From: Vermamoeba vermiformis
Lineage: Eukaryota
Assembly: GCA_045837725.1 (NCBI GenBank)
Contig: JBEWZL010000191.1
Location: 1 to 64,000, forward strand
Reading direction: 5' to 3'
DNA: 64,000 bases
Part shown: positions 5,296 through 63,796 of the stretch, one piece after another
How the letters are laid out: each line of letters opens with the position of its first letter
Position numbering within the stretch: the first letter of the stretch is position 1
Made by a program: the position numbers and the translations under genes
Notes under the pieces: model-generated
Database searches by the model: none
What the model saw: only the letters and a program-made list of their open reading frames with translations
What the model was told of the DNA's origin: nothing

Positions 5296-5795
5296 TTTCG
5301 AATCAGTTGTGTACTTCACTGGCTGATTTTTGTAATTATGAAACGCGTGCCAAGATGAGCAACACAACGCTTAGCCAACACCTCTCAACCTTATTTTTAC
5401 GCATTTAGATACCACACTATCATTGTGAACATAGTCAAATGTCAAATACTCGTGACAAAGTCCAGTTTAGCGACCCAAAGCTACATCGAGCTCGAATTCA
5501 GGATGAGCCGTTGTGTGGTGTATTTACGCATTCTAACGGTTTTATCGTAATACCAAGGTAACAGTACTCGACGAGAATTATCGTAAAATATCTCAGACAC
5601 CTTTTCAAGCCTTTTTTCGTATTTTTTACCGTTACTTGAAAATTTGATCGGTCTTTACTTGAAAACAAAAAATATTTAAGCAACAGAATGCGCCTATTGT
5701 CATATTCATTCAATCAAGTAACAACAAGAACAAGTAAGGCAAAGTAGCCTAGCTTTTCAACGCTTTCAGAAATAACACAAAGCAACACCAAGTCG

Positions 5796-6218
5796 ATGAG
5801 CCGTCGAATCTTGTCTACCTCTACCGTCGCTCTTATCGACGCTGAGGAGCCTTCTTATGGCAACACTCAAACTCAAATGTATCAATCTGCCCAACAAGTC
5901 TCTTTCAAGAGCGAGCGCGAGTTCATCCAATACATGATGCAGAATCGAGCTCAAGAAGTTCGCGAATTGTTGGCCCAGCAAATCACCTTGCAAGAATTGT
6001 TCGTCCAATTGTCTCAAATCACTCACGAGCAAGCTTATATGATCGATAACATCGAAACCAACATTGAAGTCGCCGTATCTGAAGTCAAGAAGGCCAAGAC
6101 CGAGTTTAAGAAGGCCAAGGAGTCTAAGGATAGCGAGCGTGCTTGCGCTTGCTACATGGCAAGTGCTGGTGCCGTCTTGGCTGGTATCGTCACCGTCTTG
6201 TTGGCCATCAAGTTGTAA
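5796..6218 (+). CDS. Short syntaxin-like Qa-SNARE (SNARE motif plus C-terminal TM anchor)
   Basis: LQELFVQLSQITHEQAYMIDNIETNI matches the syntaxin SNARE consensus with the zero-layer Gln; C-terminal hydrophobic anchor; intronless. Confidence 0.82.
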   Translation: MSRRILSTSTVALIDAEEPSYGNTQTQMYQSAQQVSFKSEREFIQYMMQNRAQEVRELLAQQITLQELFVQLSQITHEQAYMIDNIETNIEVAVSEVKKAKTEFKKAKESKDSERACACYMASAGAVLAGIVTVLLAIKL

Positions 6219-6543
6219 ATAGAAAAAGAATTAGCCGAGCGGATCTTCCGAACCAATTTTGACGACTTCTAACTGTAAATAACTCGACACCAATGTAAAA
6301 TAAATCGCGAAATTACACTGAAACACTAGTTTTTATTCAAAAGAGTCTTATTCCCTTAGAGCGAACCGAAATGGAATAGCAAAGCTGGATTTGACGAAGT
6401 AGGTTGCCTTCGCAAGCTACTTATTGATTGTCTTTCGACACAAATTACTTCAAATAGACGAGGCATTGAATGCTATGATAATTAAGGGTTTATTTACAAA
6501 AGTATTGACAAAAAAGCTCAGTCGAGGGAGATCGAGCTTGGGC

Positions 6544-9500
6544 TTAGCAAGCAAAGACGCTCAAGGGAGCACCTTTCATTTGCACAATGTTCTTGGCCGC
6601 AGAGTCATCGCGGTTAGAAGTGTCTTCGGACTTGCCAAAAATAGCTTCTTGAGCTTGAGCTTCACGCATGAATCCGTCCAACTTCTCGCCTTGCTTGATA
6701 AAGTTGATATACGCGCGTTGTTGATCTCGACGCTTCATGCCACGTTGCAACATGCGTTGATGCGAGATCAAATTAATACGAGCGTTTTGATAGTCACCGT
6801 GTTGAGCAATTTTAGCGCTTTCTTGCACGGCTTTCAACGCGACAATTGAAGCGTTCATGCTCACTTCGGACTCCTCGCGCTTGTTCGTGACACGTTGAGT
6901 CTTGGTAATGACGCGCAAGTAACGACCGCCATCGAGACGCGAGTAGATGATCTGAGCTTGAATAGTGACGTCGTCAGTCTTAAGTGGCACTGACGGATCC
7001 AGCGTGAAACCAAACGTCAGATCAATGTCTTCAGTGACGTTACCCATCTCACGTAAGGCCTTGTTGGAGCTCGAGTCAAGGAATTTCACTATGAAAAAGA
7101 CAACGTAAGCATTTGCACACGAATAATTTTGATAAAAGATTTGACTTACCTCCGTGAGATCCACGAACATTGACGGTGACACCAGTGCCCAAAACAGGCT
7201 TGCTCATGACCTTGGCGATTTGTTTGCTCAAGTCCAAGGGATCGACGATATCAACACTGCCAGCAGTGATATCAGCAACAGCGGCCAATTGCTCCAAGGC
7301 ACAGTCATCGCCACGAATGGTCAAGACGTTGATGGTGGTGCCGTTCTCTTTGGCCATGTTGGCAATGCGCTTGTAGAGGGCAGCGACATTCTCCTTGGCA
7401 GCACCAGTTGTGCCTTCAATAGAGCCGAAACCAACATTGGCGAGACCGTCAGTGCAGATCATAATCTTCGAGCCAGGGCGCTTAGAAGCCATACCAACTG
7501 CATAGGTCAAAGCAGGACCCAATGCAGTGCTGCCTTCGGTGTCCAATGAGTCAACACGATCAATCAACTTTTGGTGGCACTCTTTAGCAGATTTCTTGGC
7601 GCCAGGGAAGGCTTGACCGCGTTGGTAGCACATGTCGAAGTTGTTCAAGGTGCTGTTGTCAGTCAGCTTGACAGGAGCGTCGTAACCATCGCCGTAGACA
7701 GTGACGGTCTCACTGAAAGTAATCAAGACGGGGTGTTGGTTAGGGAAGTCCTTGGCCATTGATTGCAAGTGCGTGTGAACGGCAGCTTGCACGCATTGCA
7801 AACGGTTGATGCGAGTACGAGAGGGCATGCGACGTTGCAAAGCCTCAGGGAAGTTGACTTCACCAGTGACAGGAGTGTTGGTGCTCATAGAACCAGAGAT
7901 ATCAACACAGAAAATGACCATTGACTCATCGTTCTTTCTGTTTTGCTCGGAGATTTCGTGAAGGAGAGCGCTGTTGTCCATTTGCACGTTGGGCTTTTCA
8001 ATAATGAACTCAGTGTTGCTCTTCTCGGGCTTCTCGAAGTCTTCGAGTTGCACGCTGTTGGCGTGATCGCAGAACTCGCAAGTCCAGGTGTTATTGATGA
8101 CAACGCTCTTCTCGTTGAAAATGGCGCGGCAGCCCTCACAGTAGACGGCTTCACCGGTCATCAACTGTTCGGTGGGTTTGGCGAGACCAGCCATAGAAAC
8201 GCAGACGACGTTGGGGGTAGGAACTTCGTGCTTGAATGAAGTAGGGGAGCTTAACTTCAGCAGGCTTGACCTCTTCAGGCTTCTTCTCTTCAACGACAGG
8301 CTTGACTTCTTCAACGGGCTCTTCTTCGCTCTCAGACTCGCTTTCAACGTCTTCAACTTGGTTGCAGTTAGCAGGAGCGGGAGGAGCAGGCGCGTAGATT
8401 GATTTTGAGGATCCAGGCACATAGCTCGAGGAAGAGGCAGAGTAACACTTGCGGTGGACAATGGCGGGGCCGACTTCATCATAGTCTTCCTTGGTAACCC
8501 ACATATTTTGGAACGTGCTCAATGAGCCGAGGATAGAACCACCGATCCATGCAGAGTACTAATTATACTGGTTTAGTAAAAGCTAATGAAAGCAAATTAA
8601 GAGTGACTTACTTTGCGCTCAGGAGGAGCAACAACACGGATTCTGCAAGTCGAAGGAGCGAGAGCGGTCAATTCTTTTTGAATTCTGTCTGCAATGCCAG
8701 GGAACATGCTAGAACCACCGGACAAGACGATGTTGTGGTACAAGTCCTTGCGAATATCAATGTCGCACTTCATGATGGCGTTGTAAGCGAGTTCGTGAAT
8801 GCCGGCTGCTTCCATGCCCAAGAAAGAGGGCTGGAAGAGCACTTCAGCGCAGCGGAAACGCTCGTTACCAATGGTGATGACTTGGCCGTCGGGCAATTCG
8901 TAGCTCTTTTCCAATCGAGAGGACGAGTAAGCAGTTTGCATTTCTTGTTCAAAGTCCAAAGCAGTGTAGCAAAGTTTTTCCTTAATGTCACGGACAATTT
9001 CACGCTCGGCAGTCGTAGTGAAAGCGTAACCACGTTCAGTCAAAACTTTCATCAAGTAGTCGGTCAAATCACGACCGGCAATGTCGAGTCTCATAGCTGC
9101 GTGGCAAACTTCTAAGCCTTCGTAGATAGGAACGGCGTGAGTGACACCATCACCAATGTCGAGGACGAGACCAGTGGTTCTGCCTGAGGCGTAGAGCGAC
9201 AACGCTGATTGTGAGGCAGTGAAGAAGGCAGGAGCGTTGAATGACTCGAAGAGAATTTGAGTCATCTTTTCGCGGTTGGCCTTAGGGTTCCAAACATTCT
9301 CGGTCATCAAGATTGGGTGTTCTTCGGGCGCGACACGAAGCTCATTGTAGAAGGTGTGATGCCACAATTTTTCCATATCATCCCAGTTAGTAACAATGCC
9401 TACAAAGTTAGAGTTAGCTATGTCAAGTCACCTACTCAAGAAGGTCTAACGTACCGTGTTCGACGGGGTACTTGAGCGTCAAGATACCACGCTTGCTTTG

Positions 9501-10277
9501 GGCTTCATCACCGACGTAGCTGTCTTTTTGACCCATGCCGACCATGACACCAGTGTGACGAGGGCGGCCAATGAGTGAGGGGAATACAGCGCGTGGGGCA
9601 TCGTCACCAGCAAAACCAGCTTTGACGAACCACGAGCCGTTGTCGACCACGAGTGTTTGAATCTCATCGGAGAGAGAGTTAGCGCCGTACATTTGCGACA
9701 ACGATTGTTCTTGTGTAGTGAATGCCTTGTTTCCGGCAATGCGATCAAACTCTTCGTTTTGTTGCTTAGTCGCGTCCATAATCTTTTGTTGTCTGGCTTT
9801 CTGTTTCTCGACCTCTTCTTTGGTTCGTTGTTTTGAGACTGCGTCGTACTTGGCAGCCTTGCCCTTTTGATATCTTGGTTGCAAGCGGCGAGACGACGAG
9901 AAGACACCGTAGTTAGTGGCTTCAGCGTCGTTGTGGTTCATATTCGCTTGATTTTGCTTGGCTTGGCTTTGTTCTTGACCCATGCGGATCAACTCGTTCA
10001 AAAACTCTTTATCGAAGCCTTCGACGTCCTTGGCGGCATCGGCCCAAATTTTAGCTTGTTGCTGAGCTCCCGAGGACAGACCATCTTCAATTTCATCTAA
10101 GGCGAGATCCGTCAGAAATCAGATTCGAAGGAATAAGAACTTGGGCGAGTCATTCAACAATTGATGCTCGTTGTAAGAATGTAAGTATTGTTCTATAGTT
10201 CAATAGTTACCTTGATAGATCTCTTCCTCTTCGGCGGGATTCAGACCAACTAAAAATGCGGTAGTACCGAATTCCAT
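6544..10277 (-). CDS. Actin fusion protein: N-terminal extension, complete actin domain, acidic/Pro linker, Sec23/24-type Zn finger and vWA domain (CPRAS1-like body)
   Basis: Spliced actin runs from [25 protein letters not shown] to [10 protein letters not shown] with no stop, then a linker, then [10 protein letters not shown]...[24 protein letters not shown] and [10 protein letters not shown]. One +1 frameshift or a short intron near 8244-8247 is needed to join the two halves. Confidence 0.8.
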
Positions 10278-10712: not shown

Positions 10713-12399
10713 ATGGCTGATCGCAAGCTACGACGAGTTGGCTTAGATGAAAATATATTACAGCTACTCGAGAGCAAGCATTATCGCCTATGCAAGGTGA
10801 GATCCGCAAAAACAGCCAAAATTTTTAATTCCAATAAAAATTTTAAATATTTTAGCTCAAATGTTAGCAGGATCGAGCTTGAAAATACAAGATATATATG
10901 AAAAAATTAATATAAAAATTAACAGGACGTATTGTCGAAAACAAGTTTGGAACTTTTAGCCGATCTCGACTTGCCGTACGAGCTCATTCTCGATATTCAA
11001 CAAAAAGTCAGTCAAAAAATTATGCCAGCTCATAAGACCGTACGTGCCATTATTTCACTTAGTACCAAAGTTTTAACTTTGCCGTCGTCAGATCACGAAC
11101 CTTATTAACGAACCTGCGGACGTCCTTGTCACTAATTTACCAGGACTCGATGATTATTTACGAGGAGGTTTGCCTGTTGGCTCAATTACAGAGGTAGATC
11201 CAGCTCTTTAGCGTAACTGAAATTCATTTCTAACTTTGGCGTTAGATTGTCGGTCCCGCTGGTGTCGGAAAAACACAATTTTGTCATCAAATGGTGGTAC
11301 TGGCGTTATTGCAATCGAAGTATAAGTTAGTAGCTGAAGAACAGCAGATGCAGATCGACGAAAACAATCTACCCGTGCGCCCAGACTTTGGCAAAGTATT
11401 CTACTATGATACTGAAAACTCGTTCTCAACGCAGAGGTTATACGAAATTGCTGCGGCAACGGATCCAGAATATTTTAGCAGCGAAGAAAATATGATCGAT
11501 TTCACTGAACGATGCATGATCTACAAGATCCGAAGTACTGATACTTTTTTGACTGCGTAAGTATACCCATAGTATAACATACCAGTAATTAATATCGAGG
11601 TGCAGCCTGCAAACTATAGAAGAAAAAATCATCGAGGAAAATGTCAAGTTGATTATTGTGGACTCGATAGCTTCACTCGTGCGCAAAGAGTTCGATCCGA
11701 ACAATTTAGTCAAGCGGCAGAATATTTTATCGAAGACGGCGGCCTTGCTCAAGTTCTACTCGATGGAGTTCAAAATTCCTATTTTGGTAGTCAATCAAGT
11801 CACTTCAACTGCGGGCAGTTACGTCGCACCGGCTTTAGGTCCGTTGTGGTCTCACGCGGTCAATACTCGTTTAGTATTAGAATATTATAAGGATCATCCT
11901 TATAATCTCGTTCAAGTAAGTTTTTTATCATTGTCTTGTAGGGACGTACTGACTTTTTTTAGCCGCTGGATCTGCGTCGATTAATTATCGCAAAGTCACC
12001 TGTTTCGCCAGTAGTCAAGTTCCCATACTTTATAGACAATAAGGGCATTCATATACTAGCGGCTACTGATGTAAATGATGACTCAGGTACGTATCCAGAT
12101 CTATGCTATTAGTACTTCGGCAACTAATTCGAATTACAGCGAGAGAAGAGGGCGTTAATTATGTTCGTGAAGTTGAGCCTGGTAATTATTGGTCACAAAC
12201 TATACAAGGAAAGGCTCAAGGTCACTTCGGTACGTACAAAGCAAATCCGCTTACTATGTCTTGTACAAGTTGTTGGGTGACATACTTATATGTAATATAA
12301 TTAGGTACTTCCGTGGATCACCAACATGCGTTAATTACGCGCAAACAGTTCTCGATCTACAACGTAGAACAGCCGGATCAACCAATGTCGGACATGTAA
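10713..12399 (+). CDS. RAD51B: RAD51 paralog, RAD51B-like
   Basis: LRGGLPVGSITE, Walker A GPAGVGKTQFC, YYDTENSFS, Walker B IIVDSIASLVRKEF, VVNQV, ALGPLWSHAVNTRL and IAKSP. Confidence 0.85.
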
Positions 12400-15914: not shown

Positions 15915-17502
15915 TTAAAATTTTGTGTCCACGTGCGACATGAAAAAACGATGGATGCCTTTAGCTCCGATCTCATTGTAATCGTCTATAGTCATAGCCA
16001 TACTATCATGCACAAACAGCGACCCTATTATACTGCCGCCGACCCAAGCCGAAAGCTGCGGATAAAATCAGCATTACTTTACCTAATTAGGAAAACAAAG
16101 TTTGGCTTACCTGCGCCTCAGGCAGTTTGACAACTTTAACGTCTTTATAATTGGTTGAAGCCAGTAATGCTTTCAAATCTTGCCTCAATCTCTCGCCTAC
16201 GCCAGACATTTGGCCAACAGCTCCACCAATCACAATATTCCGCAACAGTTCTTGGCGTAATTCTTCGGGACATTTTTCTATGCTTTGAAACACCAGATCC
16301 GCGAGACCAGGCGAGCTTATGTTAAGCACTGAAGGATTAAACAATGCCTCGCCTACTTTGCACCTCTCGGGGCCTATCATAAAATATAGTCATTATAGAT
16401 ATCTAGTACTGTCCAACTTCAGTAAGAAGTGTCAAAGTGTCAGAATTTGACACGTGTCAAAAATCGTGAAATTTTGTTATTGCATCGGACAAAGGTTTCA
16501 ATCATAGTGTACATATTATTATACATACCATAATTAATATATTCTCCGCCCGGTAATTCCCAGCCAGACCAATACCGATCGTAATTACAGGTAATTTCTG
16601 TGTTGCAATCCAAAGTAACATAACTGTGGCGTTCAGTAATCAAACGAAGACAATGTTTTTTTGCTGGTGAATCGAAATAATATCCGCCTTCATTAAGCAA
16701 TTTTTCAAAATACGAAGTCAGTTCTTTCCCGCCAAAATCGGCTACCGTAATTCCGTGAATAATTGGCAAACCCTCGTAAATAGGCACTACTCTTATTGAT
16801 TGATAGCCTAGTGCTACTGATAAGCCAGTTAATCTACCACTGCAATATAAGGACCAAAGTGATTGAGGTTGCATGACAATCGTCTTGAAGTTGAAAGTCT
16901 CGAAACACATCTCGGTCTTTTTTTCTCGATTTGAAGCGGGAATGAGCTCATGTTCGGAGACTAATAGGCTAAGGCCAGAGGGGTCCATTTTAATGTCCTC
17001 GTATATAATCCTATTCCATATTTTTTCAACGGTAGTCACATCCGAAAAAACTCCTATAGGCATCCATAAAACCAATTAAAATCATTCAATAGTAACTATG
17101 AAATATAAATATTCATTTGAAGAATTAAAATTAAGTGTTTTTTTTGGCTGGATGTCGAAAAAAAATTAAGACTTACCTCGTACAACAGGGAAAAATAGTT
17201 GTGGATCTTCAGGGACCATATTATTAACTTTAGCATCTTCATTAGTAGACACTGCAGTTGTTGAGTCAATTACTGGGAAATCTTCGCCGGCTATTCCAGC
17301 TTTCGTTTTGAAGGATCCCATGTCAATCACCACTGTACAATTTTTAAAAATTATAAATAAGTATACGAACGATATTTTAGGTAAAATAGTGCTTAAAAAA
17401 TAATTACTACTCCATTACAAATTTTCGTAACGGATTTAGAATTTGGAATTCAATTTCGCTGCAGTTCAGTTTAAACGTACATTTTATCGAGTCTTCAGCC
17501 AT
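15915..17502 (-). CDS. Divergent actin-like / actin-related protein
   Basis: Spliced MAEDSIKLVIDMGSFKTKAG, NREKKTEMCFETF, SGRLTGL, VVPIYEG, ELPGGEYI, NIVIGG and SAWVGGSIIGSL; stop TAA at 15915-15917. Confidence 0.88.
16448..16459. repeat. Intronic palindrome TGACACGTGTCA
   Basis: Read directly; preceded by two GTGTCA half-sites; lies in an intron of the actin-like gene. Confidence 0.6.
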
Positions 17503-20374: not shown

Positions 20375-23300
20375 TTATAATGGAATTGGAGCTCCAGGCA
20401 CTGCCTCACTTTGGAGGGTAGATCCACTTTGGTCCAACCGTTTGAGGTATCCGTCCAGATCTGGAATAAATGTTTCTGCACCGGGTAATTGCACTGTAAT
20501 TTCTTGACCGGTAATGACGTTCTTCAAGTGCACTGTAATTATACCGTTGACATCCATCTCAATTGTCAATTCTCCGATCTTGGTTCCTCTGTAAACCGAA
20601 CAATATTAATAAGACAATTCCTTATTAATTAGAATACGTACTGTTTTACACCATCCAATCCGTCCAATTTCAAGTTTTGGATCAAGAAATTTTCGGCCGT
20701 TACACTTGACTCGCCGTAATACAACTGCGATATAACAATGAATAGGGATATGTATATAATGACGTCAATATACTTACATTAACTTCAACTTGCTGCGTGT
20801 TATCATTGGCCAAAATAATCTCGCGGATCTTCTTGGTTGGCATAGCAGTGTTTCGTTCGAGTATTCTAACGAACTCTCCGTTGTGATTGGTCATTAGAAC
20901 GCTGGTAGCTACCACATCGAGTAAGAGAATGCTATCGCTTTCATCGAGGGCTGCAGTTGGAGCCGGTCGCATCACTATAAAACAAACAATTATATTAAAA
21001 CCTTTTCTTAATACTAGATAATAGTGCCTGGCTGCCGGTCGCATCGAAAATATAACTATTTATTACAAGAAAGGATCGTTTAAACCATTACGTCAAAAAA
21101 AAATAGTGCATATTTTTTTCAGGAATAAAAGATGATAGTAATAATTAATATGAACAACGCAGTAATGTACGAGTGACGTTCACTAAATAATCCCGTAGCG
21201 GAACTTCGTTTGCGACCGGCAGAAGCATCGTAATAAGGATCGACTGAGGCAGTTTTGACCGCCAATATTGTGTTGGACAGACTTACTCTTGGCACTCGCG
21301 AACCCTCCTGCGCCAAAAGCTCTATGATGGTGCATTGCTTCTTCGCGCACAGTCTGAATAGGCACGATGACCTGTTGTGTCTTGCTCGGATCATTTTCTT
21401 GCGACTTGTCTACGGCAATGAACGAGGTCTCACGCGACATTAAGTTGTACCGTTGAGCCAAATCAATAATTAAGTTCTTCACTTTCGAGGCACTCTCTTC
21501 GTCCAGCTCGGGTCGGTGGTATCGGAGATTTCCGGAACGGTCTTCTTGGACCTTAGCTTCGTGTGCGAGGTGGATCTCGCTGCGAGATTCTTCTAAGTCG
21601 CGAATTCTTGAACGAGCTGCAAGTTTGTGAATGGTGTCGCCGTTGACGTGACGCACGGCTGTTTTTTCAAGGATGATGTCACCTTTGGCAGTTTTGACGA
21701 TGAATTTGTCGGGGACTGGGCCAGTCACCATGGCATAAGCCAATAGACGAGATCCTTCATAGAGGGTGGGCAGAGTGTAAGGCGTTTGGAACTGAACTTT
21801 GGCTTCATCGGAGTTAGTCCAGCTGACACTCTTGACCTCTTGCGAGTTACTGCCCAATGCTCGTTGCATTTGACGGTTAATCTAAGATGCAAAATAGAAT
21901 AAGATCGAGTCCTAGTGTGCATTAAACTTGACGTACCTTTTCAATGACTTCTTCGCCAGGAATTACAAACTCGGCAATACCATCACCCGCACGAGCCAAT
22001 CCGTTGACCAACTGACATTGCAAAGGTTAGAACGAAGTAGATAGACTATAAAACCTAGTCATACCAAGTGACTGACGCCGTAGCCAATGCCGACAGCGAA
22101 CACGCGATTGAATTTCTTATGCTTTTCTTCGCCAACCATGGCAATAGTGCGGTCTAGTAAGAGGTTAGGAAGGAGTTACAGGAATATAGATCAACGTACC
22201 TGTGTCGGAGATCTCGCCGTCAGTGATGACAATGACATTTTGCTTCGTTTTGTCGTTGACACTTCGTTCCAAGACGTACTTGAGAGGCTCGTACAATTCA
22301 GTGCCGCCGTTAGCCTGCAATGTTTCAACGAACTTCATGGCCGTATCGTAGTTTGCTGCATCGGCTAAGACAGGTGCGTCGAAGAGTTTGTTGTAGCCCG
22401 AAGAGAAGGCAATAATATTGAAGTAAAAATTACTTCGTTCAAACTTCTTCATGGCGTTGTCCGAGCGGCGCTTAATGTCGTTAAGACTAACGCGCAAAGC
22501 TTCTTTAACATTTTGCATCTTTTCGCCGAACATGCTGCCCGAGACATCGACGATAAAAACGACCACTTTGTCGTCGCCAATGGTCTCTTCTTTGACTTCC
22601 AAATCGGGATAAAGAGCAACGAGCACAGCCTTGTCCGGTAATCCAGCTTCATGAACGCGTTAGATAAGGTATACCAAGCTAAGAGTGGCATGGACTTACG
22701 TGTAGTTTCAATCCAAGCACGTGGCTCGTGAGGGGCTTGCAAGTTGACAGTCATCACAAAATCACTGTCCATTGGCTTAGCGCCACTAAGCTTAACGGTG
22801 CCTTTAAGTCCATTAAGTTCAACTGACACGGGGTGCGAGGGCGACGAGACTTTAACGATACGAGAAGGCATTTGCAAGTCAATGTTGAGACCGAACTTAT
22901 ATGGCACGACGTCTTGGCTTGGCGGATTCAATACCGAGTCTGTGCTGCGATGGTCCCTAAAAACGTCCCATATTAATACGCAATACGAAGCGAAGTTAAA
23001 TACCAAATGTTTTCTTGAAAAGTTTGAGATCGGATCTGTTCATGAAACAAAAGCTTACTTTGTAGTGGCGTCAATGGCTGGGACGTATCTTGGCGCGATA
23101 GTAGTCGGCAAGATGAATCTTAAATCATCACCTTCGAGCGTGAGTTCGGTCAAATAAGTCACTGTAATCTTCGCTTCTTTACGAGCGGGAAGGTTTCCGA
23201 CATTAACTGTAAATATGTCTGCTCGCTCTTCTTCCATCAAATATGCAGTGTGGCCTTGTTCGAGTGCCTCGTTGTATTCTTTGAGTGCTTGTTGTCTGCG

Positions 23301-58506: not shown

Positions 58507-60954
58507 TTACAGGTGGTTATCTTCCTTCCACAACAAAATAGCCTCTTTCAAGCCATAGGAAAGTTCGTCTAACGAATCATTTTGATACAATTTGATCTCT
58601 TCTGAGATATCCGTTGCCAAATTGTTCCTCAAAGTCGCAGCTTCTCCGTCATCCCGACTAACAACACCAGTCAAGTTGTAAGTCTGCAACAACTCCATCA
58701 TCTTCGCGTATATTTGACCTTCTTTAGTGGCACTCATATCAACGCCAGCTAATTTAATCGCTCTCTTCAACATGTGACGAGCAGGATCTGACGATGATTC
58801 TTGTTCAGACATGTACTTTGAAGGGTTCTGGTACACGTCCAGTGGCGAAGGAGACGAGAATGCACCGCCATCCTTTGGTGGGGGCGGCGCGTCTGTAGCA
58901 TTGCCATAGTACATAGGCTGTGGGTCAATTACGTGGGACTGTGGCTGGGGTTGAATCACGTGCTCTTCAGGTGGTACGATCACGTGACTTGGCTGCACGA
59001 CGTGTTGAGGCTGAGGGTTGATATCGATCACGTGATTGTTGTAGATATTGGGCTGAGCAGGGGGTGGAATCACGTGAACAGGATCGACCACCACGTGGCT
59101 TGGCTGCGGATCCACATTGATCACATGAGGCATCTCGGTCTTAGTCTCCGCAGGCTTCTTAGTTGACGACGATGATGAGCTGCCCGATGATGACGTACTC
59201 GATGCTCGTTCGCGATTTCGCATTTCTTGGACCTCGAGGGGGACTTCTGGTTGAAGTCCAATCTCAGCACGTGCTCCAAAGTCTTCTCGTGGTTTTCTCT
59301 CTTTGACAGGCCTCTCAGGCACCTTCCATAACAAGGCTACTAAAGTGATCATGAAGAACAATCCCGCGAGCAACATGAAAACAAACGAGGCAATGCCCCA
59401 CCAAAACTGCACTTCCCACAAGTACCATTCATTGGCAGCTGCACCAATCACTCCAATGCAAAATTGTTGCGGCAAGCAAATGATAGTGAAGGCTTTGTAC
59501 GAGCGCTGAAAATGTCCATAACTTGTGCTAAGCAAGTCATCGGCCAGGAACCACGTCACAGCGAGAATAGCGATGTTAAACGCCACGGAGATGAACATGA
59601 GGCCAGTGAATGGATAGACGAAGCCGAGAATATGGGTGTTGAGCACAAAGAGGATCCAACCAAGGAACAAAAGAATGTAGGCTCGCACATCCAATCGTCT
59701 TGATTCCTTTCGGCATTGGACGAGCAACGCAAGGCAAAATACGAAGAGCATCAAGCCAGTGCTTACAACAGTCAACACTACTGGCATGGCAACTTCACGA
59801 GCTAGATCCGCCAGTTGATTAGTAAGTTTTATCGATCGGAAGTCCTTATAAGACGCACCTTCGATTGTTCCAAAGTTGTCAGAATCAGACAGTGCATTGA
59901 CTCTAGCAAATGATATTGATGCGTCGAGCGCTGCAAGGCCCAAATTGGCCGTGTTATTAGAGTTATCGAGATCGTACTGACAACCTAAAAAAAAATTAAT
60001 TAATTATAATTATTAAGCAATAGGTATTATACGTCTAATTATTATCAGTGCTTTGGTACACAATAATAGAATTCTAATTTCAATTTTCCGATTTTTAGTT
60101 CTAATTTAACCTACCCAACTGGAATTCTTCGGGTAATTTGCTGCAAGCTGAATAAGAAACGATCGATGGATAGCCAGGTACTGATACTTCAGCGGTGCAA
60201 GTGTTATTCTGGGTGCAAATTCCTTGGCTGACATCCGCCAATCCGGTTCGAATTGAAACCGACATGTATCTTCCGGATTTTCTTATAATTAAGTCCGTAT
60301 TGACTGCCAATAAGTTGATTGCTGCTTCCGTCGTATTTTGAGTAATAGTAATCAAATGGGGGAACCATCCTTGGGCCGGGATTCGTCGCGCATCCCAGTC
60401 ATCCTTTGAATACCAGGTTCTGGAATAAACAGCGCATCCATGATAATCAAATCTAATACCAGTAATTCCAGGATATAATATGCCGGCAGTAACGCGGTCG
60501 TCGACGGTGGTGTTGGTGAGCGCCGTAATGGTAAAGTATTCGTTGGTTAATAATATCGTTGAATTTTGTTGAGGGCAAAGCAGCACAGTACTATTAAAAT
60601 CAATAGTATGATAAATGCCCCATACTGAGCATGTTTGTCTTGCTTCTGCTACTTGCGTGGGAACCGTTGAGCAAATCGGGCACGATCCTGGTCGAAATAG
60701 CTTCGGAACGAAAGTATGAATAGCATCCCTGTATTTCGTATCCAAGACATGAGGCATCTAAGCATTGAGATAAGCCATAAGCGTTGGAACAAAAATCGGA
60801 ATTCGAAGGATCCACATTAAACTCGGCAAGGCAATCACTATTTACGGTGTTAACTGCCTCGGAGCAGCCTGTATGTGCCTGTGTCTACCGCGTCTTGCTG
60901 GTACGAAAGGCCAAATAAAATAAATATGAAAAAGACTGCTGTTGTTGTGCCCAT
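58507..60954 (-). CDS. RGM/vWD-like ectodomain multipass membrane protein, paralog A (two apparent frameshifts in exon 1)
   Basis: Signal peptide MGTTTAVFF..QQDA, CSVWGIYH and FQLGCQYDL, about 5-6 TM segments, HVI-repeat Pro/Gln region, C-terminal LSYGLKEAILLWK. Collinear with paralog B. Confidence 0.75.
58925..59125 (-). repeat. Coding tandem repeats (H-V-I/V-x-P-Q-P)
   Basis: Repeated CACGTG codon pairs encoding HVINVDPQPS, HVVVDP, HVIPP, HVIDINPQPQ and HVIQPQPQS. Confidence 0.7.
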
Positions 60955-61287: not shown

Positions 61288-63796
61288 TTACAATTGATGT
61301 TCATCTTTCCACAACAATACAGCTTCTTTCAATCCATAAGCCAGATCTTCAGCCGAGTCGTTTCTGTACATTTTCAATTCCTCCGCTAAATGCTTCGCGA
61401 GATCATTCCTTAATGAAGCTGCCTTAGTATCTTCACCATATAATGCTCCGACTAAGTTTTGAGCTTGCAAGAGCTCTTGAACCTTGGCACAGATCAGACC
61501 TTCGCGTACTGGATCAACTTCGATGCCGGCGATCTTAATAGCTCGCTTAGCCACTTGTCGTGACGTATCTAAACTGTTATTTGGCATTGGATTTGACATC
61601 ATAAATTGAGTTGGATCCGGTGCTGCCATGTACTTTGCGGGGTTTTGGTACACGTCCATAGGCGAAGGAGCGTTGAAAGCTCCAGCACCATTAGGAGGTG
61701 GCGGGGCCTCTAATGGATTGCCATAATAGATTGGCTGAGCTTCGATCACGTGACTTTGTGGTCGAGGTTGAATCACGTGGTCTTGCGGTGGTGGTACTAC
61801 AGGGCCTTGTTGCGGTTGAATCACGTGACTCTGTGGCTGCGGCACAACAGGGCCTTGTTGTGGCTGCATCATAATTGGTTGTGCTTGTGGCATAGGTTCG
61901 ACTGCTACTACACGCATTGGTGGTGGCAAGATACCCTGTTGCACTTGGATCACGTGCTGTTGTTGGACTTGCACGGGTTGAGGCTGTTGCTGTTGTTCAG
62001 CACGAGCGACTTCCATAGCGACCATGAGGTCATTGAGCACTTGCATAGGCTCTTGATGTACAGGCGCAGGGCCGTTGAGAATCTTCGCAGCCCAGCTCAT
62101 GTCCAAGCACAAGAAGCACATGAAGATGCCTCCCGCGAGCAACAAGCCGAGGACGCCAATGCCCCACCAGAACTGCACCTCGATGAGATAATACTCGCCA
62201 GCAGCGGCGCCGATAATTCCTATAGCTGCTTGCTGCGGTAGAGCAAAGCCTAAGAGGGCTTTAGTGATGTGAATTGACTGTTGCGTGAATTTGCTCGATC
62301 CAAAGGTGATACATTTGTGATTGGTTCCAACCCAAGCAAGGATCCATATGCCACAGAAAGCTGATAGTATTGTCATGCCCGTGAATGGGAATAATAAGCC
62401 AATCGCATGAGGGTTCAAGCAAAAGATGATCCAGCACCAGATCGCTCTGATCGGAGCAGATTCGAGATTTCTGTGACGAGCCGCAGGTGTGTATGCGTTT
62501 GCAGAAAAACAACAACAGCAACCCGTATTAGCGTTACAACATCCTTCATAGGCCGAAAACTCCATTGTTTCAGCTGCGCGCTTCATTGCTTTTCGGCGCC
62601 AAAAATAGGCTCCAATATAAACTCCAACCATGACTGCCGTCGGTCCTAATGTCAAGACAATAGGCAAACCAGTCTTCTGAACTGTAAGTAAATTAAACAC
62701 GATTAGATCCGCAACGAAAATGAAAAGACAGTCTGAAAACTCGAAAATTGAATCAAACTTGATATTTACTGAATGGTACTTACATTCTACTTCGCCAAGG
62801 CTCGATGAATTGGATAGACTCTTTAAATAGGTATCAATTGTGACGGCATCCGAGATCAAAGCAGTGGGTTGATCTGTGAGTGAGTCGTACGAGCACGCTG
62901 AGAACCAAATTAATTAGCTTACTATTAAATAATATATCTCCTAATTAGAGTATCAATTTACCTCTCTGGAATTCGGTTGGGTAAGATGCACAAGACGGGA
63001 TCGAAGCGAATACAGAGCTATCTAACGTGCAATAATTGCTCATGCAAACCCCACCAAGTGAGATGGTATTAGTACTATATCGAACACCAGTAGTAATGCT
63101 AACTGCCAATAAATTTGAACCAGATGGCGCTGATATAATAATCTCCGTATTTAACGCTGGCAATTCTATTAATACTTGTGTAGTATTTTGAGTAATATGA
63201 ATGGTATGTGGGAACCATCCTTGCGTTGCAACTCTTTCTGCTCTCCATCCATCTGCTCTTCGCCACGTTCTTGAAAATATTGCGCAATAATGATATTCAA
63301 ATTTAATTCCAGTAATTCCAGGAGTAGCTGCATATATTGTGGAATTGGATTCGGCCGTAAGCGTGAAGTGAAGGTTGGAAAAAATAACAAATGAGGAGTT
63401 TGTTGCAATGCCACAGGTCTCTGGTTGTCTAGTAAATGGTACTACGTGGCCTGTTCCCCATACGGTGCATGTTTGTTTCAAATCTGTCACGACTTTGGGC
63501 TCATCGTAACAATCTGGACAGATGTTCGGTCTATTCAATGCAGGAACGACTAACTGAGCCGCTGATACTACTGTCTGCGACATACATGATGCGTCTATAC
63601 ATTGCGTGAACGCTAAACCATAGGCGCAAAAGCCAAAGTTGGTAATATCATCCGGCGACGCGTAACTAAATCCAGTAGCGCTCAAACAATAGTCGTTAAT
63701 GCTTTGCACGAGTGGATCGCATTGACCAGTTATAGCATCTTGCTGAAGTGAATAGCCGACTAAAATAAATAAAAGTACGGCTGTCGTTGTGCTCAT
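61288..63796 (-). CDS. RGM/vWD-like ectodomain multipass membrane protein, paralog B (intact)
   Basis: Signal peptide MSTTTAVLLF..QQDA, Cys-rich helical part, CTVWGTGHVVPF and EFQRACSYDSLT, TM block with LPQQ..GIIGAAA..EVQFWWG, Q/P repeats, C-terminal LAYGLKEAVLLWK. Confidence 0.8.
61745..61960 (-). repeat. Coding tandem repeats (QPQQGPVVP / SHVIQP)
   Basis: Near-duplicated units QPQQGPVVPQPQSHVI and QPQQGPVVPPPQDHVI. Confidence 0.7.

Follow-up and report, generated by a model that had tools for sequence, protein, structure and literature searches.

The locus described here raises the question of whether an actin can form an internal part of a large adaptor-like protein and, if so, what the actin would be kept for. 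It lies in 64,000 nucleotides (nt) of Vermamoeba vermiformis DNA (assembly GCA_045837725.1, contig JBEWZL010000191.1, positions 1 to 64,000), and this whole stretch is called the window below. A preliminary description, made from the letters of the window, had proposed that positions 6544 to 10277 encode an actin fused to a zinc finger and vWA module of the Sec23/24 type. This element is a genuine eukaryotic gene, in which an N-terminal extension, an actin, a linker and a Sec23/24-like body are encoded in one protein of ~1149 amino acids (aa). In the reading that we prefer, with a probability of roughly 0.6, the gene encodes a member of an actin/Sec23/24-like protein family whose actin module would dock on the barbed ends of filaments or co-assemble with them, tethering an adaptor that carries a metal-ion-dependent adhesion site (MIDAS).

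The fusion gene occupies 10277..6544 of the minus strand, from an ATG at 10277 to a TAA at 6546-6544, and has five exons and four GT-AG introns (114, 55, 53 and 61 nt) bearing CTAAC- or TACTAA-like branch sites. The stop-to-stop open reading frames (ORFs) across 10277-6544 of this strand contain, in order, the N-terminal extension with the start of the actin, the actin core, the end of the actin with a long tail, the finger with the vWA domain, and the C-terminal tail. The gene model comprises 1149 aa; the extra base of a C run was masked as X in it, not mended. Its features are the following.

10211..10277, minus strand: exon 1 (67 nt), with the ATG and the start of the N-terminal extension, including the MEFG motif
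10226-10032, minus strand: N-extension motif 1, interrupted by intron 1
10097..10210, minus strand: intron 1 (114 nt, GTAACT..TTAG); its splicing restores the conserved EEIYQ/DEIEDG
9455..10096, minus strand: exon 2, with the remaining N-terminal extension and, from 9665, the actin's N-terminal portion (Pfam Actin, 58.3 bits)
9893-9843, minus strand: N-extension motif 3, within exon 2
9644-9621, minus strand: actin P1 loop, in exon 2
9557-9522, minus strand: actin D-loop, in exon 2
9400..9454, minus strand: intron 2 (55 nt, GTACGT..CTAAC..TGTAG), inside the actin domain
8612..9399, minus strand: exon 3, the actin core (conventional-actin residues ~74-336; Pfam Actin, 308 bits)
8559..8611, minus strand: intron 3 (53 nt, GTAAGT..TACTAA..TTAG); its splicing gives PPERK/YSAWIGG
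7150..8558, minus strand: exon 4, with the actin C-terminus, linker, pre-finger motif, zinc finger, vWA domain and start of the beta-sandwich
8456-8442, minus strand: HRKCY, the end of the actin, with no stop codon after it
8441-8234, minus strand: linker (aa 539-607; 69 aa, acidic and Pro-rich)
8233-8183, minus strand: pre-finger motif, in exon 4
8140-8069, minus strand: zinc finger with four Cys (CxxC..CxxC)
7921-7229, minus strand: vWA domain, with the MIDAS residues DISGS at 7903-7889, T within 7534-7508 and TDG within 7456-7436
7089..7149, minus strand: intron 4 (61 nt, GTAAGT..CATAG)
6544..7088, minus strand: exon 5, with the remaining beta-sandwich (to 6895), the helical domain (6885-6547) and the TAA stop
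6489..6494, minus strand: AATAAA, ~50 nt past the stop, a possible polyadenylation signal

The actin domain is flanked by 166 aa on its N-terminal side and by 611 aa on its C-terminal side, and it is not a stand-alone actin of ~375 aa ending in ..HRKCF. Several elements of the preliminary description were recovered in this model: the N-terminal extension, put there at about 160 aa, measures 166 aa and is conserved in the family, and reading does continue past HRKCY into an acidic, Pro-rich linker. Prokaryote-style gene calls fragment the fusion gene in every record examined, so that this architecture is easily missed. As a separate observation, intron 2 is present in the window and absent from a related 4735-nt metagenome contig, L001 (303-1745; 86% identical), where aa 20-501 are read in a single ungapped frame; this is an intron gain or loss between close relatives.

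Continuity between the actin and the body was then followed in other records. L001, which is 76-94% identical to the model by segment, contains the gene in full, and its aa 499-970 share a single frame; a second locus (L005) carries the 5' half of the gene. Both loci keep the neighbours found in the window, with the SNARE gene downstream and the Rad51-like gene upstream, which indicates that the locus is stable. The proteins P0127 and P0128, from contigs of 535 and 558 kb, both read on into intron 4. Three further proteins (P0129, P0130 and P0131) are the same upstream, lack exactly intron 4 (..RGSHG/VKF..) and go on as far as the C-terminus. P0129 (631 aa on a contig of 2037 nt) covers the actin C-terminus, linker, finger, vWA domain, sandwich and tail to the last residue; as intron 4 is missing from it, we take its contig to be spliced and RNA-derived.

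In the window as given, the linker is in one frame (frame A, with a stop at 8151) and the finger and vWA domain are in another (frame B), and a +1 shift is needed at ~8258-8243. A codon-usage log-odds scan trained on the rest of the fusion gene favoured the actin frame to ~8258 and the vWA frame from ~8245. The break maps to the following position.

8244..8247, minus strand: frame break; a run of four C, one base more than in the continuous reading of P0053 and its relatives

P0053, an NCBI-sourced ORF of 475 aa that is 100% identical over the body, reads without interruption from the final 21 residues of the actin, across the linker and on into the finger, and it differs from the window exactly as if the C run at 8247-8244 had three C instead of four. 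Its relatives P0054 (87% identical), P0127, P0128, P0129 and P0132 (same 90% cluster) are also continuous across the break; four relatives that read through are 85-93% identical to the window. Likewise, DNA alignment with L001 gave the window exactly one extra base in or beside the same C run. Most probably, the extra C does not belong to the gene as such and reflects either a private allele or an error in the assembly. Two introns were considered as the cause of the frame change and rejected. A 64-nt candidate at 8420-8357 (GTGCCT..CTAAC..CAAG) is ruled out by the codon usage, which favours frame A to ~8258, and its residues are encoded in P0053 and its relatives. A mini-intron of 25 nt at 8255-8231 would compare with other introns of 53-114 nt, and the same proteins translate this stretch in frame.

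On the sequence records, the actin and the vWA body hold together as one gene product. The frame break is the sole point in favour of two separate neighbouring genes, one for actin and one for a vWA protein, having been misread as one or joined in a chimeric assembly. We consider this extremely improbable, because six or more independent records, drawn from NCBI, JGI, ENA-derived and Logan data (four sources), read through the junction, the spliced contig crosses it, full-length fusions of 1077-1427 aa exist in distant lineages (including P0045, an ORF from a transcriptome) and an actin with a 95-aa tail past HRKCY would be anomalous in itself. A true frameshift, pseudogene or null allele in this genome is improbable. 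The product would then stop at 8151, after the N-terminal extension, the actin, the linker and a short stretch read out of frame, while the vWA body would be unmade or made separately from an ATG at 8194-8192. The extra base is indeed present in the window, frame A does stop at 8151 and the ATG is in frame. However, the 1635 nt of coding sequence downstream of the break stay open and have a gene-like codon usage, intron 4 is intact, and P0053, identical in the body protein, has no break. Moreover, the ATG lies inside a motif conserved in the family (the pre-finger strands), so that a start there would truncate the fold, and the break falls in a homopolymer run, presumably a usual site of assembly errors. 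The single actin-vWA product of the preliminary description is thus upheld by the relatives and the spliced contig, but not by the window as given, with its linker and finger in different frames.

The actin domain is complete. Pfam Actin (PF00022) matched three exon pieces (58.3, 308 and 59.3 bits), covering profile positions 2-409. The domain is identical to a conventional-actin representative (P0144) at 298 of 371 positions (80%), and the full actin fold close to conventional actin that had been described was therefore borne out. The best PDB sequence match of the core exon was Actin-1 (4efh_A, 478.8 bits); by our own count from the printed alignment, this exon and Acanthamoeba actin are identical at 207 of 256 positions (~81%). 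D11, N12, S14, K18, Q137, D154 and H161 are kept, and G15W, M16F, C17V and S155I are altered. The same Trp is found at the Gly15 position in L001, so that it is not a sequence error.

The picture across the family was obtained from 15 fused actins, whose identity to conventional actin averages 0.63 per position. Mean identities by region were the following.

P1 loop (residues 11-18): 0.36
Q137: 0.13 (kept in 2 of 15)
P2 loop (residues 154-161): 0.38
Adenine pocket: 0.42
D-loop: 0.77
Residues 53-72: 0.89
Residues 195-204: 0.92

Taken as residue sets, the pointed face reached an identity of 0.85, which none of 10,000 random residue sets equalled, and the nucleotide residues 0.46, with only 5 of 10,000 random sets as low. 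The barbed-face (0.68) and lateral (0.63) sets were both about average. The actin of the window is the same as conventional actin at 31 of the 32 pointed-face positions. Throughout the aligned family, the ATPase loops are decayed and the pointed-end face is the most conserved part of the actin, a pattern that fits docking on filament ends.

The body was analysed by domain search and by structure prediction. On the exon translations, the Pfam families zf-Sec23_Sec24 (28.5 bits, cut-off 25) and VWA_2 (32.2 bits, cut-off 27) scored above their cut-offs, while Sec23_trunk (25.8 bits, cut-off 27) was just under and Sec23_BS (24.1 bits, cut-off 33.5) was under. The MIDAS is complete, with DISGS, T (in GSTALGP) and D (in CTDG). 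Among 86 aligned homologues, its D, S, S, T and D are invariant and the four finger Cys are at least 90% conserved. The CxxC..CxxC finger, the vWA domain with its DISGS, T and TDG residues and the helical tail were thus all identified as described. The AlphaFold2 (AF2) model of P0129 had a predicted local distance difference test (pLDDT) of 88.3 and a predicted TM-score (pTM) of 0.83. Behind a disordered linker it has strands and then the finger, and these are followed by an alpha/beta domain, a sandwich and a set of four long helices; the protein ends 113 aa after the beta-sandwich with helices only. A Foldseek search of the PDB with the body model returned only Sec24/Sec23 at the top (~30 chains, E 3e-24 to 5e-19, prob 1.00), with TM ~0.52-0.57 over ~620-640 columns and 13-16% identity; a bacterial vWA protein and then archaeal ArnAB came below them. 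The order of zinc finger, trunk, beta-sandwich and helical domain is that of Sec23/Sec24. Judged from the model, the body holds as Sec23/24-like in fold, as the preliminary description had expected. By sequence, the body gave no match to PDB chains at E <= 1; only 21-42 actin residues at the start of the query were matched. Look-alikes of the body in the protein atlas were cpRAS1-like, ciliate and Asgard vWA/Sec23-trunk clusters.

Proteins of the same architecture were found outside the window. A search with the body as query gave 47 longer matches, seven of which (774-1340 aa) carry a precomputed Actin domain, with P0045 coming from a transcriptome assembly; many other matches bear Ras domains or the name 'circularly permutated Ras protein 1-like' (E 1e-51). 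Another homology search gave an Actin domain in 2 of 74 matches. When P0045 was searched against 1.84 billion representatives at 50% identity, 15 of the best 150 matched both actin and the body (HMM and phmmer tests), and Actin together with vWA, trunk or finger was present in 11 of the 22 representatives scanned with Pfam. In all, 29 database proteins unite actin with this body. The N-terminal extensions of the fusions and of the window share three motifs: MEFG..EEIY.DE..DG.A, F..L...T and R.QPR[FY]QKG....YD. The MEFG..EEIY start is kept in P0044, P0133, P0134 and P0276 and in the loci L001 and L005. The motif R.QPR[FYL] occurs in 19 of the 281 collected proteins, each of them being either a fusion, a truncated piece of one, or the window.

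Additional domains are present in some members. Four of the seven actin-bearing matches to the body also carry PF00397, the WW domain, and the lineage of the window is without it. In two further representatives, P0134 (residues 1031-1088) and P0168 (residues 1086-1159), a WWE or U-box domain is inserted in the body. Since the Naegleria CPRas carries a RING finger, according to the cited part of PMC2430557, domains of the ubiquitin-ligase type seem to recur on this scaffold.

The relationships of the bodies were analysed in a tree of 105 rows (quick IQ-TREE run, LG+G4, with support by the Shimodaira-Hasegawa-like approximate likelihood ratio test (SH-aLRT) only). It omits two exon pieces of the window, five near-duplicates from its lineage and the rows whose hidden Markov model match does not span positions <=110 to >=515. 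All 23 usable actin-linked bodies grouped together in a 26-row clade (SH-aLRT 100), whose remaining three rows are N-terminally truncated fragments that start inside the body. The main Ras-bearing clade (17 Ras rows and one fragment, support 99) adjoins the actin clade within a cluster of 48 rows (support 94), and four more Ras-bearing rows form a second, distant group. In the actin-domain tree (107 rows), all 16 fused actins and eight other rows share one weakly supported cluster (support 85) apart from the conventional actins; this tree speaks neither for nor against the fused actins having arisen once. The fusion is a member of a conserved family, apparently of single origin, and the actin-bearing counterpart of cpRAS-vWA.

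The cpRAS-vWA proteins (Dictyostelium CPRas1 type; Elias & Novotny 2008, PMC2430557) have, in the cited sections of that paper, a poorly conserved linker, a four-Cys finger, a vWA or 'Sec23/24 trunk' domain and a Ras head. Head-less paralogues are described there too, the authors state that the family has no defined function, and the word 'actin' does not occur in the paper. In the cited part of a 2026 paper (PMC13393502), CPRas is mentioned only as a possible ancestral gene of the Ras family. Named cpRAS1-like proteins matched the body of the window (E 1e-51 to 1e-39, 33-37% identity) and have the same C-terminal half of linker, four-Cys finger and vWA, and the clades of the two kinds of body adjoin. 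By contrast, the head in the window is an actin with its own conserved extension of 166 aa, not a circularly permuted Ras; no piece of the window gave a Ras-family Pfam match. With the Ras part of P0018 as query, phmmer found 23 proteins; the actin clade includes none of them, and none of its 23 actin-linked rows gave a Ras match. The likeness of the body to Dictyostelium CPRas1, with actin in the place of Ras, was accordingly sustained.

With regard to function, we propose that the actin module would be retained for its contact surfaces and not for ATP turnover. Its pointed-end face (D-loop and tips of subdomains 2/4) would dock on the barbed-end face of ordinary actin, and the protein would thereby join or cap the barbed ends of filaments or be built into them. 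Both the N- and C-terminal appendages would leave from subdomain 1, on the barbed side, and a flexible tether of ~70 aa would present the Sec23/24-like body, whose MIDAS metal site and finger may bind an acidic determinant of a partner. That the pointed face is kept while ATP turnover seems to have been let go suggests a protomer of this kind. A bolder version, possible but doubtful, is that of an ancient protist family of single origin in which the ATPase-decayed actin protomer serves as a filament-end handle. Its pointed face would plug onto barbed ends and the appendages on subdomain 1 would hinder further growth, anchoring the ends to the MIDAS adaptor. Together with cpRAS-vWA, it would imply that an ancestral Sec23/24-like scaffold has repeatedly swapped its nucleotide-binding head (a Sar1-like partner, a fused Ras, a fused actin).

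Several points weigh against the barbed-end reading. The Trp at the Gly15 position of the P1 loop and the altered W-loop (IYEGLEVC vs IYEGYALP) could each impair nucleotide binding or subunit contacts. The filament-face residue sets come from the F-actin literature and not from a tool, and the random-set control takes no account of conserved positions being clustered. The body tree is the unrooted product of a quick LG+G4 search, and in the actin-domain tree the fused actins are not resolved into a single clade (five changes needed). Taken literally, the window is frame-broken, and the product of this genome copy could be truncated. Furthermore, the preliminary description had suggested that the protein could co-polymerise with, cap or nucleate filaments at a membrane coat; no present result connects it with membranes or a coat, or with any known ligand of the MIDAS.

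The main rival to a barbed-end role is a non-polymerising actin that acts as a regulatory or docking module and stands where cpRAS has its GTPase; it would be a pseudo-NTPase switch packed on the body or a decoy platform for actin-binding proteins such as profilin, cofilin or formins. We regard this as unlikely, though several observations agree with it. The adjoining of actin-bearing and Ras-bearing bodies in the tree suggests that one NTPase-fold module replaced another on the same scaffold, and the ATPase loops have decayed (P1 0.36, P2 0.38, Q137 kept in 2/15). In the full-length AF2 model of P0139 (pLDDT 75.6), the first 40 residues of the N-terminal extension form strands and helices at pLDDT 78-87, which hints at packing on another domain. 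Nevertheless, the pTM of this model is only 0.55, which supports no fixed arrangement between domains. A complex prediction for P0139, run without alignments (actin 155-528 and body 600-1117, with the N-extension 1-100 as partner), gave 0.07 and 0.08 against a mark of 0.34, which speaks for neither reading. Against the rival, the most conserved surface of the fused actins is the pointed face used for actin-actin contact (0.85), and in the window the actin shares 80% of its residues with conventional actin, D11, Q137, D154 and H161 among them. It is very improbable that the protein is a divergent paralogue of the inner coat of coat protein complex II (COPII), acting with a Sar1-type GTPase at endoplasmic reticulum exit sites and bearing actin as an add-on. 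The best fold match is Sec24/Sec23, with a Pfam match to zf-Sec23_Sec24 and Sec23_trunk near its threshold. Yet a gelsolin-like domain is missing (the helical domain closes the model, and the last exon gave no Pfam Gelsolin match at E <= 0.1), and the body has no PDB match by sequence at E <= 1. The MIDAS is invariant in the body family and is not known to be kept in Sec23/24, and the closest sequence relatives are cpRAS1-like proteins instead of Sec23/24.

Comparison with other known systems places the docking actin in the following context. The protein shares with Sec23/Sec24 the domain order and fold (finger, vWA-like trunk, beta-sandwich, helical domain), but differs in lacking the gelsolin-like C-terminal domain, in its complete MIDAS and in the fused actin. 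Similarity to archaeal ArnA/ArnB was also detected by Foldseek (8s05_A, 'ArnAB complex an archaeal ortholog of the Sec23/24 core motif', E 2e-13), and the Asgard vWA-Sec23/24-like look-alike clusters of the protein atlas are mostly Thorarchaeota and Promethearchaeota; these proteins are prokaryotic, without an actin or Ras module, and their alignments are shorter (TMq 0.35-0.41). Filactin of Dictyostelium has its extra domains N-terminal to the actin, which ends the protein. Filactin and the fusion both have a conventional-looking actin domain within a larger polypeptide, whereas the actin of the window is internal and its C-terminus runs into the ~610-aa body. Many other representatives, of 1000-1800 aa, have the actin at their extreme C-terminus, which is a different architecture.

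In the full text of open-access papers and preprints (without supplements), no description was found of an actin joined to a Sec23/24-like or cpRAS-type vWA body; an apparent mention of VWA in PMC9187236 was the word 'vwall'. No source name was attached to any actin-bearing match seen. The scaffold and actin fusions as such are already known, and this conserved combination, with its N-terminal extension and decayed ATPase site, appears to be undescribed. The combination had been put forward as unfamiliar; it is not unique to this genome, being shared by a conserved monophyletic family. Actin is almost always free-standing, and a conserved internal actin in a large adaptor would be a new way to couple filaments to other machinery. 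The family also serves as a natural experiment that can show which surfaces of an actin are needed when its ATP turnover has become dispensable. It adds to the cpRAS-vWA family, itself poorly understood, and suggests that the N-terminal head of the Sec23/24-like scaffold is interchangeable. If true, the bolder version, with its swapped heads and filament handle, would link coat-type adaptors directly to the actin cytoskeleton.

As a side observation, one of the top Foldseek matches of the body was chain 9ya0_GF, Toxoplasma SEC23. According to the cited part of PMC12819142, SEC23 and SEC24 of Toxoplasma belong, as structural components, to the preconoidal P2 ring, where formin 1 and a myosin are found as well; the ring is a precedent for Sec23/24 modules at a site of actin assembly.

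Finally, the surroundings of the fusion gene were inspected. The GC content is ~40%. Its neighbours in the window are a SNARE-domain gene, a Rad51-like gene, a GH15 gene, a second actin-family ORF and an unrelated vWA ORF, and they give no sign of a functional cluster. The two genes kept in L001/L005 are the following.

5748-6215, plus strand: SNARE-domain neighbour
11246-11981, plus strand: Rad51-like neighbour

The second actin-family ORF (16443-17075, minus strand) lies ~6 kb from the fusion gene and matches Pfam Actin with 98.6 bits (profile positions 68-190). It may be an actin-related protein (Arp) or a divergent actin, and a homology search with it gave nothing at E <= 1e-20. The vWA ORF unrelated to the fusion (22168-22659, minus strand; VWA_2 46.5 bits, VWA_3 44.6 bits) stands beside an ORF of 232 aa without a Pfam match (21186-21881, minus strand), and the two are probably exons of one larger vWA protein. 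Further along the window, two tandem paralogous ORFs of 498 and 541 aa (58510-60003 and 61291-62913, both on the minus strand) have no Pfam match; they contain hydrophobic segments and a Q/P-rich stretch with repeated 'SHVI'-like units, and their C-terminal ends are similar.

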